From: Escherichia coli
GTDB lineage: Bacteria > Pseudomonadota > Gammaproteobacteria > Enterobacterales > Enterobacteriaceae
DNA: 64,000 nucleotides
Assembly: GCF_044647545.1 (NCBI RefSeq)
Contig: NZ_CP172818.1
Direction: 5' to 3' (one strand)
Shown one piece after another: positions 158-1,304 of the stretch (positions within the stretch are counted from its first letter, which is position 1; every line of letters begins with the position of its first letter). The position numbers were made by a program, and so were the translations under genes. The notes below the pieces were generated by a model. That model worked only from the letters and a program-made list of their open reading frames with translations, searched no databases and was not told the origin of the DNA.

Positions 158-181
158 TTTCAGTACTCTAAAATGCCCGGT

Positions 182-224
182 AAAAAAAAAAAAAAAAAAA
201 AAAAAAAAAAAAAAAAAAAAAAAA
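182..224. repeat. Uninterrupted 43-nt poly(A) homopolymer (poly(T) on minus strand)
   Basis: Read directly from sequence: t at 181, a x43 at 182-224, t at 225. Begins 25 nt after the metL stop. Confidence 0.95.
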
Positions 225-390
225 TACGCATGTATTTGAACGGCGTTTAAAATGGTTTTAAATGAAACTATAATGCGGTAACGATAGGTATTGAAACGCG
301 TGATGAAATTAAATGCTACAACGTTATACGACGAACTCAAAGGCAAGGTGATTTGACTTCCTGATCACGAAGTGTTCCGGCCCGGCAGCC

Positions 391-928
391 AAAAGGGGGG
401 AAAAAGCGGCGCGGAAAAAAAAAAAGCGGGAGGGGAAAGGGGGGATAACCGGGGAGCAAAGGCGGCGAAAGCGAAAAACAAAACGCAAACCCACAAACGG
501 AGGGGGGCGAAAGGAGAACAAAAAGAAAAGGCGAAAGAAAAAAACGCAAAACCAACGCGACGAGGAAGGCCCAACCGGCAAAAAAAAAAGCAACGACGGA
601 AAAAAAAGTGAGAAGTGGCAACAAACGGCGCGCAACGCGAAAAAACGTCAGGAACGCCCCAGGAAGGGGTGAGCGGGGCGGGGGGGAAAAACCACCACGC
701 AACAGCGCGGGAGCCGGGGGGGAGAGGCGCCACACAAACGAAGAAGAAGGGAAAAAAAAAAGGAGGGGGGAGAAAGGAAAAGGGAAAAAAGAACGACACA
801 ACGGGGGCGGGGAAACAAGAACCAAAGAGCGCCAAAACAGGAAGGACACAAGGAAAGCGCGTAAACAAGGGCGGATACAAACAAACGGAAACCACAGAGA
901 ACAGACAAGGAGGAAAAAAAAACCAATA
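391..928. repeat. T-depleted purine-rich low-complexity tract (about 8 T in ~540 nt) with several G-run clusters
   Basis: Direct count on the + strand: whole 60-nt lines with zero T (481-600, 721-840); A roughly half, G about 30 percent, C under 20 percent. Minus strand is correspondingly A-free. Confidence 0.95.
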
Positions 929-1199
929 AAGTACGTGTTGAGTTGATTTTCATTTGTTTGTTACCCAGTTGATTTTGCATATCCAGTATTCGGCCTACGC
1001 GAGGGCGCAGGCCGAATCAGATGTCTTACAACAACAATCCGGTGCGACACGTTGTTTTTCGAAGAAGCCCAGGGTCCGTGTTCAGAATAACAGCAAAAAG
1101 GGGGAGGGGATGCGGCACAAAAAAAATCTTTTATCGCCTCTAATTAAGATGAAGTTTTTTCAACTTCCCTGATTTTTCCTCACCATCATTGGTCATTTT

Positions 1200-1262
1200 T
1201 CGGTTGACGCCCCTCGGCTTTTCCTTCATCTTTACATCTGGACGTCTAAATGGATAGATGTT
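1200..1262 (+). promoter_or_regulatory. metF promoter region with tandem MetJ-box-like octamers
   Basis: ttgacg at 1204-1209; tandem 8-mers acatctgg/acgtctaa/atggatag/atgttcac around 1230-1262 resemble the AGACGTCT met-box consensus, ~45 nt upstream of the metF ATG. Confidence 0.55.
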
Positions 1263-1304
1263 CACAACACAACATATAACTACAAGCGATTGATGAGGTA
1301 AGGT

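Follow-up and report, generated by a model that had tools for sequence, protein, structure and literature searches.

The spacer between metL and metF in the Escherichia coli sequence described here raises the question of where its extra DNA came from. In the window, that is, the whole 64-kb stretch of DNA that was analysed, metL ends with an intact 3' end and the stop codon TAA at positions 155-157, the metF open reading frame begins at 1305, and the 1147 bp between the two genes (158-1304) exceed the 348-bp spacer of K-12 MG1655 by about 799 bp. A preliminary description of the sequence had correctly placed the metL stop at 157 and the metF ATG at 1305, with a spacer of ~1.15 kb compared with ~350 bp in K-12, and had taken the additional ~0.8 kb to be an insert in a K-12-type spacer. 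The spacer contains a homopolymer of 43 A residues (A43) at 182-224, a mixed segment at 225-390 and, to the right of it, a tract at 391-930 that had been called T-free. The depletion of T in this tract is indeed extreme, but 8 T are present among 252 A, 181 G and 99 C, and the tract is T-poor and not strictly T-free; it is the sole stretch in the 64-kb window with three or fewer of any single base per 100 nt. The probability of finding 8 or fewer T in 540 nt by chance is ~1.5e-50, and the number of A43 runs expected by chance is ~6e-22, so that chance is excluded. At face value the spacer would pass as a novel low-complexity insertion, or as a T-less element upstream of metF.

Over about 61 kb the window and E. 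coli FDAARGOS_497 (NZ_CP033850.1) agree in every base, and the differences between the two are confined to a few patches. Window 1-158 is 100% identical to the loci L006, L003, L010 and L014, the last of which is the FDAARGOS_497 locus. In FDAARGOS_497 the metL-metF spacer measures 3161 bp and holds an island of two genes (Table 1), one for a 517-aa nucleotidase with Metallophos (PF00149) and 5_nucleotid_C (PF02872) domains and one for a 376-aa protein to which the domain search assigned no family. The 376-aa gene overlaps the 3' end of metL by 37 nt in the natural island, and its product has a weak similarity to an IS1-type zinc finger (E = 3e-4, below the cutoff). Of 5426 complete E. coli genomes, 1838 have the metL-island-metF arrangement intact and uninterrupted (1841 with a gene-internal probe), and about 3578 have the K-12-type junction. 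Island-type spacers longer than that of the window are common in E. coli. The preliminary description had named natural spacers of such length and with such sequence as the finding that would speak against an insert, and this is largely what the 1838 genomes with a 3161-bp spacer provide.

The protein encoded by metF also places the window in this group. Its MetF (296 aa) is the same protein that occurs on thousands of E. coli contigs, and in all 10 of the distinct genomic contexts returned the 517-aa protein and the opposite-strand 376-aa gene lie upstream of it. Because the window has this common E. coli MetF, and because its core is 100% identical to FDAARGOS_497, the DNA is from E. coli and not from another Escherichia species; the latter had been considered after a first megablast match of 92.8% identity and was rejected, the low value being due to the damaged segment 928-1130. 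The lineage diverges from K-12 by about 2-3%, lineage-specific SNPs included, and all of this divergence is reproduced in the more than 60 kb that are identical in the window. The organism is almost certainly a FDAARGOS_497-like E. coli carrying the ordinary two-gene island, and at its true locus metL and metF almost certainly lie 3.2 kb apart, with two genes between them, one convergent and the other, the nucleotidase gene, co-directional. Measured against its nearest relatives, the window has a spacer that falls short by about 2.0 kb and is not 0.8 kb too long.

Table 1. Features of the metL-metF locus, the two genes of the natural island, and other altered patches of the window. Positions are those of the window unless a locus is named.
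Feature	Position	Strand	Remarks
metL, 3' end	1..157	+	intact
Left edge of corrupted patch	159..181		island 21-mer and K-12-like GTA
A43	182..224		absent from both natural alleles
Blend of two unrelated natural sequences	225..292		from local alignments
Damaged nucleotidase copy	287..390	+	gene nt ~541-664; ~85% identical, almost only single-base deletions, frame broken
T-poor tract	391..927	+	last ~900 nt (899) of nucleotidase gene, L006 4720-5618, in 537 nt
Island-type spacer 3' of nucleotidase stop	928..1149	+	lightly damaged, 80-90% of bases kept, some K-12-like bases
metF promoter, MetJ-box and leader	1150..1304	+	intact; natural FDAARGOS_497-type allele
metF	1305..2195	+	intact; 296-aa product
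EGY17_RS10060, hypothetical protein	L014 188-1318	-	376 aa; FDAARGOS_497 island
EGY17_RS10065, bifunctional metallophosphatase/5'-nucleotidase, UshA-like		+	517 aa; FDAARGOS_497 island
yijF-gldA intergenic region, REP-like element	6464-6622		clustered G and C deletions vs FDAARGOS_497
Small extra deletions	17149 (1 nt), 22042 (7 nt), 38946-38958 (~7 nt)		junctions where FDAARGOS_497 is without the REP/spacer sequence of K-12
manD (D-mannonate dehydratase) and MFS-transporter island copy	26580-28958		L014 28690-31502, between argH and oxyR in FDAARGOS_497
rpoC-thiH intergenic region	59912-59939		rewritten 27-nt K-12-unalignable junction; K-12 has yjaZ there

Most of what had been regarded as inserted DNA proved to be a degraded colinear copy of the resident island. 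A global alignment of window 225-1310 with the closest relative (L006) remained colinear throughout, starting within the nucleotidase gene and reaching metF, and window 225-1130 follows the 3' two-thirds of that gene and the spacer downstream of it. In the T-poor tract, the reference bases were retained to very different degrees (A 78%, G 66%, C 44% and T 4%). The alignment deleted 183 of the 195 reference T and substituted 5, and the inserted bases were mostly A (45 of 68, the others being 13 G, 9 C and 1 T), with expansion of A-runs. This alignment scored 317, compared with 85 +/- 29 for 300 random genomic segments (z = 7.9) and 145 +/- 11 for shuffles (z = 15). When the gene was stripped of its T, it matched 89% of the tract and had nine 14-mers in common with it, compared with none for the intact gene. 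The colinearity of the tract is not due to cheap gaps. Further to the right, a REP-like hairpin at 988-1017 lies within the island-type spacer. About 970 bp of the ~2990-bp island remain, and both of its open reading frames are destroyed: the intact 517-aa nucleotidase frame is absent from the window, in which tblastn returned only a 38-aa fragment (E = 0.013), and the intact 376-aa gene of the minus strand is likewise absent, what is left of it being the part that overlaps metL and one 21-mer.

That 21-mer forms the left edge of the patch. Window 159-179 matches exactly a stretch of the island interior (FDAARGOS_497 locus L014 621-641), occupies the place of the similar start of the K-12-type spacer (TTTCAGAAATTTAATAATGCCCGGTA) and is directly followed by a K-12-like GTA; in the natural island, 396 nt separate the metL stop from the 21-mer, and the window lacks them. 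A third natural allele with this left junction was considered and rejected, since the junction of metL with the 21-mer was found in none of the 5426 complete genomes and the 21-mer, which belongs to the interior of the island, is placed by microhomology. A43 then replaces about 1.3 kb of island (L014 642-1938), a stretch in which the hypothetical gene has its 5' half and the nucleotidase gene its first ~490 nt. The segment that follows, 225-292, is similar to two natural sequences at once, the K-12 spacer (K-12 locus L015 293-353; local score 42, shuffles 18.3 +/- 2.9, z ~8) and the nucleotidase gene (L014 1939-2010; score 37, shuffles 22.4 +/- 2.9). The double similarity could be understood if the K-12 spacer were a decayed remnant of the island, and this was rejected because the K-12 spacer and the island have no significant homology to each other. 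Homology to K-12 does not extend across the full spacer, which can be aligned to K-12 only at 159-182, at 225-292 (garbled) and at 1150-1304. A sigma-70-like match inside the blended segment, at 246-274 (TTTAAA, 17-nt spacer, TATAAT), is most likely without meaning.

A real foreign or novel element of about 0.8 kb in a K-12-type spacer, for example a retro-insertion with a poly(A) tail or a T-less cassette of synthetic origin, would agree with the excess of ~0.8 kb over K-12 and with the K-12-like left 24 nt, but we consider it very improbable. The presumed insert runs colinear with a gene resident in E. coli and with the spacer that follows this gene, the right two-thirds of the spacer are island-type and not K-12-type, and the poly(A) lies on the 5' side of the gene-derived segment. 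A designed cassette is further contradicted by the 8 T of the tract and by its correspondence to a natural gene with the T deleted. The searches for genes of such an element, and for its boundaries, also count against it. In Pfam the three longest open reading frames of the tract had no match, and neither transposase, reverse transcriptase nor integrase was found. Translations of open reading frames from 159-1149 and 26580-28958 had no homologue among 5.8 billion protein clusters, the frames of the spacer tract that were searched in this collection being the three longest and four further ones. The preliminary description had proposed that the junctions be inspected for a target-site duplication; none was present in the spacer, nor were bracketing terminal repeats, and the repeats that occur there are low-complexity families. 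A search of window 1-2500 against Rfam gave nothing but a chance match to mir-14 (E = 0.2) outside the spacer, and scans of the spacer for promoters and terminators gave nothing meaningful. The exact spacer patch occurs in 0 of the 5426 complete E. coli genomes.

Alignment of FDAARGOS_497 to K-12 breaks down at seven segments (159-1149, 6464-6622, 17149, 22042, 26580-28958, 38946-38958 and 59912-59939), and the patches in which the window differs from FDAARGOS_497 coincide with all seven of these; otherwise there are only a few scattered indels in the rRNA operon. The copy of the manD and MFS-transporter island is colinear with its natural counterpart and ~64% identical to it, with ~35% of positions substituted over most of it in an A-biased manner and few indels. 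Toward its right end, at about 28790-28900, G is specifically deleted, and a microhomology (TTTGGCA joined to AAAAAAAGCGG) that mimics K-12 sequence marks the point where the MFS gene breaks off, ~190 nt short of its end. We considered whether 26580-28958 might be a natural divergent manD/MFS allele and rejected this, since the segment has no open reading frame of more than 100 aa, its homology is scattered over several frames, and an identity of 64% stands between perfect flanks. G is lost also at 6464-6500, in the yijF-gldA region, for which the best match among the 5426 genomes was 91.9%. In the rpoC-thiH region the window reads CAGACTTTGC, the K-12-type string, at 59931, where FDAARGOS_497 has CAGAGGGCAAAGTC, and the stem of the rpoC terminator has lost one G; this version is unique among the 5426 genomes, with a best full-length match of 90.2%. 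None of the patches 159-1149, 6464-6622 and 59912-59939 recurs among the 5426 complete genomes. The biased base varies by patch, being T at 391-927 and G at 6464-6500 and 28790-28900. Separately, a few scattered single-base indels and mismatches to FDAARGOS_497 occur in the rrn operon (16S-tRNA-Glu-23S) at 38356-41870, and these could be differences between rrn copies or an artefact of the same kind as is proposed below for the patches.

A frame-destroyed, colinear relic of a gene is superficially like a pseudogene, and would be left if the island had decayed in vivo or had undergone localized hypermutation, e.g., if a skewed dNTP pool had made resynthesis lossy and error-prone, with template A passed over and a shortened, T-less pseudogene as the outcome. 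This is nonetheless highly unlikely. Flanks of ~61 kb that differ from a sequenced relative by not one substitution leave no time for neutral decay, and no known mutational process deletes about 180 T singly while substituting hardly any. Decay would need seven independent events with differing biased bases, located exactly at the sites that are unalignable to K-12, and it does not account for the K-12-type bases inside the patches. For the DNA to be physically real, strain-specific islands would have to be lossily re-copied in vivo, partly on the template of a co-resident K-12-type allele, by repair synthesis that might skip template A under dTTP starvation and slip on A-runs; we find this scarcely credible.

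From these sequence comparisons, we conclude that window 159-1149 is very probably a non-biological corruption of the known metL-metF island. This reading is drawn from the confinement of the patches to K-12-unalignable segments between perfect flanks, from colinearity with the island together with base-specific loss (T 4% vs A 78% kept), and from the blending of the bases of both alleles within patches. It is drawn as well from the change of the biased base between patches, from the uniqueness of the patch versions that were searched and the absence of their ORF products from the protein clusters, from the lack of an ORF family, RNA family, target-site duplication or terminal repeats, and from the intact island at the same locus in 1838 of 5426 genomes. 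The real spacer would be the 3161-bp island, and the record a lossy, base-biased reconstruction of it in which ~0.4 kb would have been skipped, the 21-mer kept and ~1.3 kb collapsed to A43, the remaining ~1.3 kb having presumably been copied colinearly with T dropped, C and G dropped in part, and A-runs inflated.

If the patch is a corruption of this kind, we lean slightly towards a consensus made from two incompatible alleles, in which a K-12-type allele would have had island-type data imposed on it or mixed into it. Assembly guided by a K-12-like reference, or polishing on such a backbone, is a possible route, as is the collapse of a strain mixture; DNA that can be aligned would then give the clean sequence of the dominant strain, and DNA that cannot would give a blend anchored by microhomology, with base-dependent choices between calling a base and calling a gap. 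K-12-type bases that are absent from the island allele do occur in the patches, namely in 225-292, in the GTA after 179, at 1151 and at 59931. A simple model in which half of the reads have a gap fails to predict the substitution noise at 26580-28958, and the biased base also differs between patches. Artefacts of consensus, polishing and reference-guided assembly, and 'glitch' stretches in long reads, are known at structural differences. We know of no standard pipeline documented to produce near-total T drop-out over 540 nt plus A43.

Two other artificial origins were weighed against a two-allele consensus. Gaps in an otherwise accurate short-read assembly may have been filled with single, uncorrected long reads of very poor quality, whose raw noise would bring in glitches or junk, runs of one base and channel-specific drop-outs, and the colinear, indel-rich, base-biased noise and the inflated homopolymers between perfect flanks do resemble bad long reads. 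We regard this as improbable, however, since it leaves unexplained the K-12-type sequence inside patches, the patches of 1 nt (17149) and 7 nt (22042) at junctions and the skipping of 0.4 kb and 1.3 kb, and since long reads do not have the profile of 26580-28958, where 35% of positions are substituted and indels are few. The other is a purely in-silico corruption of accessory segments, whether deliberate or the work of a model, for example by a generative or denoising sequence model or by a simulated-decay routine, and this we hold to be possible, if rather doubtful. Such a process would keep the common core, blend the rarer alleles and drift to poly(A) or to a restricted alphabet, and what is seen in the window is allele blending exactly where E. 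coli lineages diverge and low-complexity degeneration (A43, the A/G-rich tract). The ~35% A-biased substitutions without indels at 26580-28958, which are unlike read errors, and the failure of the patch ORFs to leave a trace in public protein collections, point the same way. On the other hand, more than 60 kb of one lineage with zero errors would be hard for a free-running generative model, and the placing of an exact island 21-mer by microhomology looks like an explicit alignment step. The substitution noise in manD and the poly(A) and restricted alphabet fit an in-silico origin at least as well as a pipeline artefact; under either reading, the feature is not real DNA.

From 1131 to 1304, over the metF promoter and leader, the alignment with L006 was clean. 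Homology to K-12 resumes over 1150-1304 (97-98%), and this segment equals the closest natural allele save for one indel pair at 1151-1153, where the window has at 1151 the K-12 form TGAAGTTTTTTCA. The earlier statement that the metF promoter and operator are intact thus holds, ~1150-1304 matching both K-12 and the natural allele apart from that indel pair. The MetJ-box-like repeats that had been put at ~1200-1262 are present, but sited slightly rightward, as Met-box-like 8-mers at 1232, 1240 and 1256. The suggested effects on read-through from metBL and on supercoiling have no real object, the base-specific loss pattern pointing to corruption and not to biology. The spacer feature is almost certainly not real but a corrupted rendering of a known and common accessory island, which is carried by a third of E. 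coli genomes. Segments of the window that are structurally unlike K-12-type E. coli, including the manD and MFS island at 26580-28958, should be flagged as unreliable, and results obtained in segments of this kind from the same source call for distrust until they have been compared with reads.

The spacer may be compared with several known systems. Poly(A)-tailed retroelements and G-less or U-less cassettes have in common with it a long A-run and a strand poor in one base, but the window has no element ORF and no target-site duplication, and its poly(A) is on the wrong side. Like the known assembly artefacts, the patches are restricted to structurally differing segments, have perfect flanks, base-biased, indel-rich noise and inflated homopolymers, and consist of sequence found in a single record; no documented case is known to us in which such an artefact removed one base almost entirely over 0.5 kb, and the substitution noise of the manD patch is atypical of them. 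Resemblance to the K-12-type spacer (L015 269-353) is seen in the ~24 nt that follow the metL stop and in 225-292, and from ~1150 onward the homology is 97-98%, whereas the window is ~800 bp longer and its central part is derived from the island. The natural island differs in that the window has nearly no T over 537 nt, an A43 in place of ~1.3 kb, and an admixture of K-12-type bases; it is nevertheless the same locus, with a 100% identical metL end, metF promoter and metF, and window 225-1130 is colinear with it.
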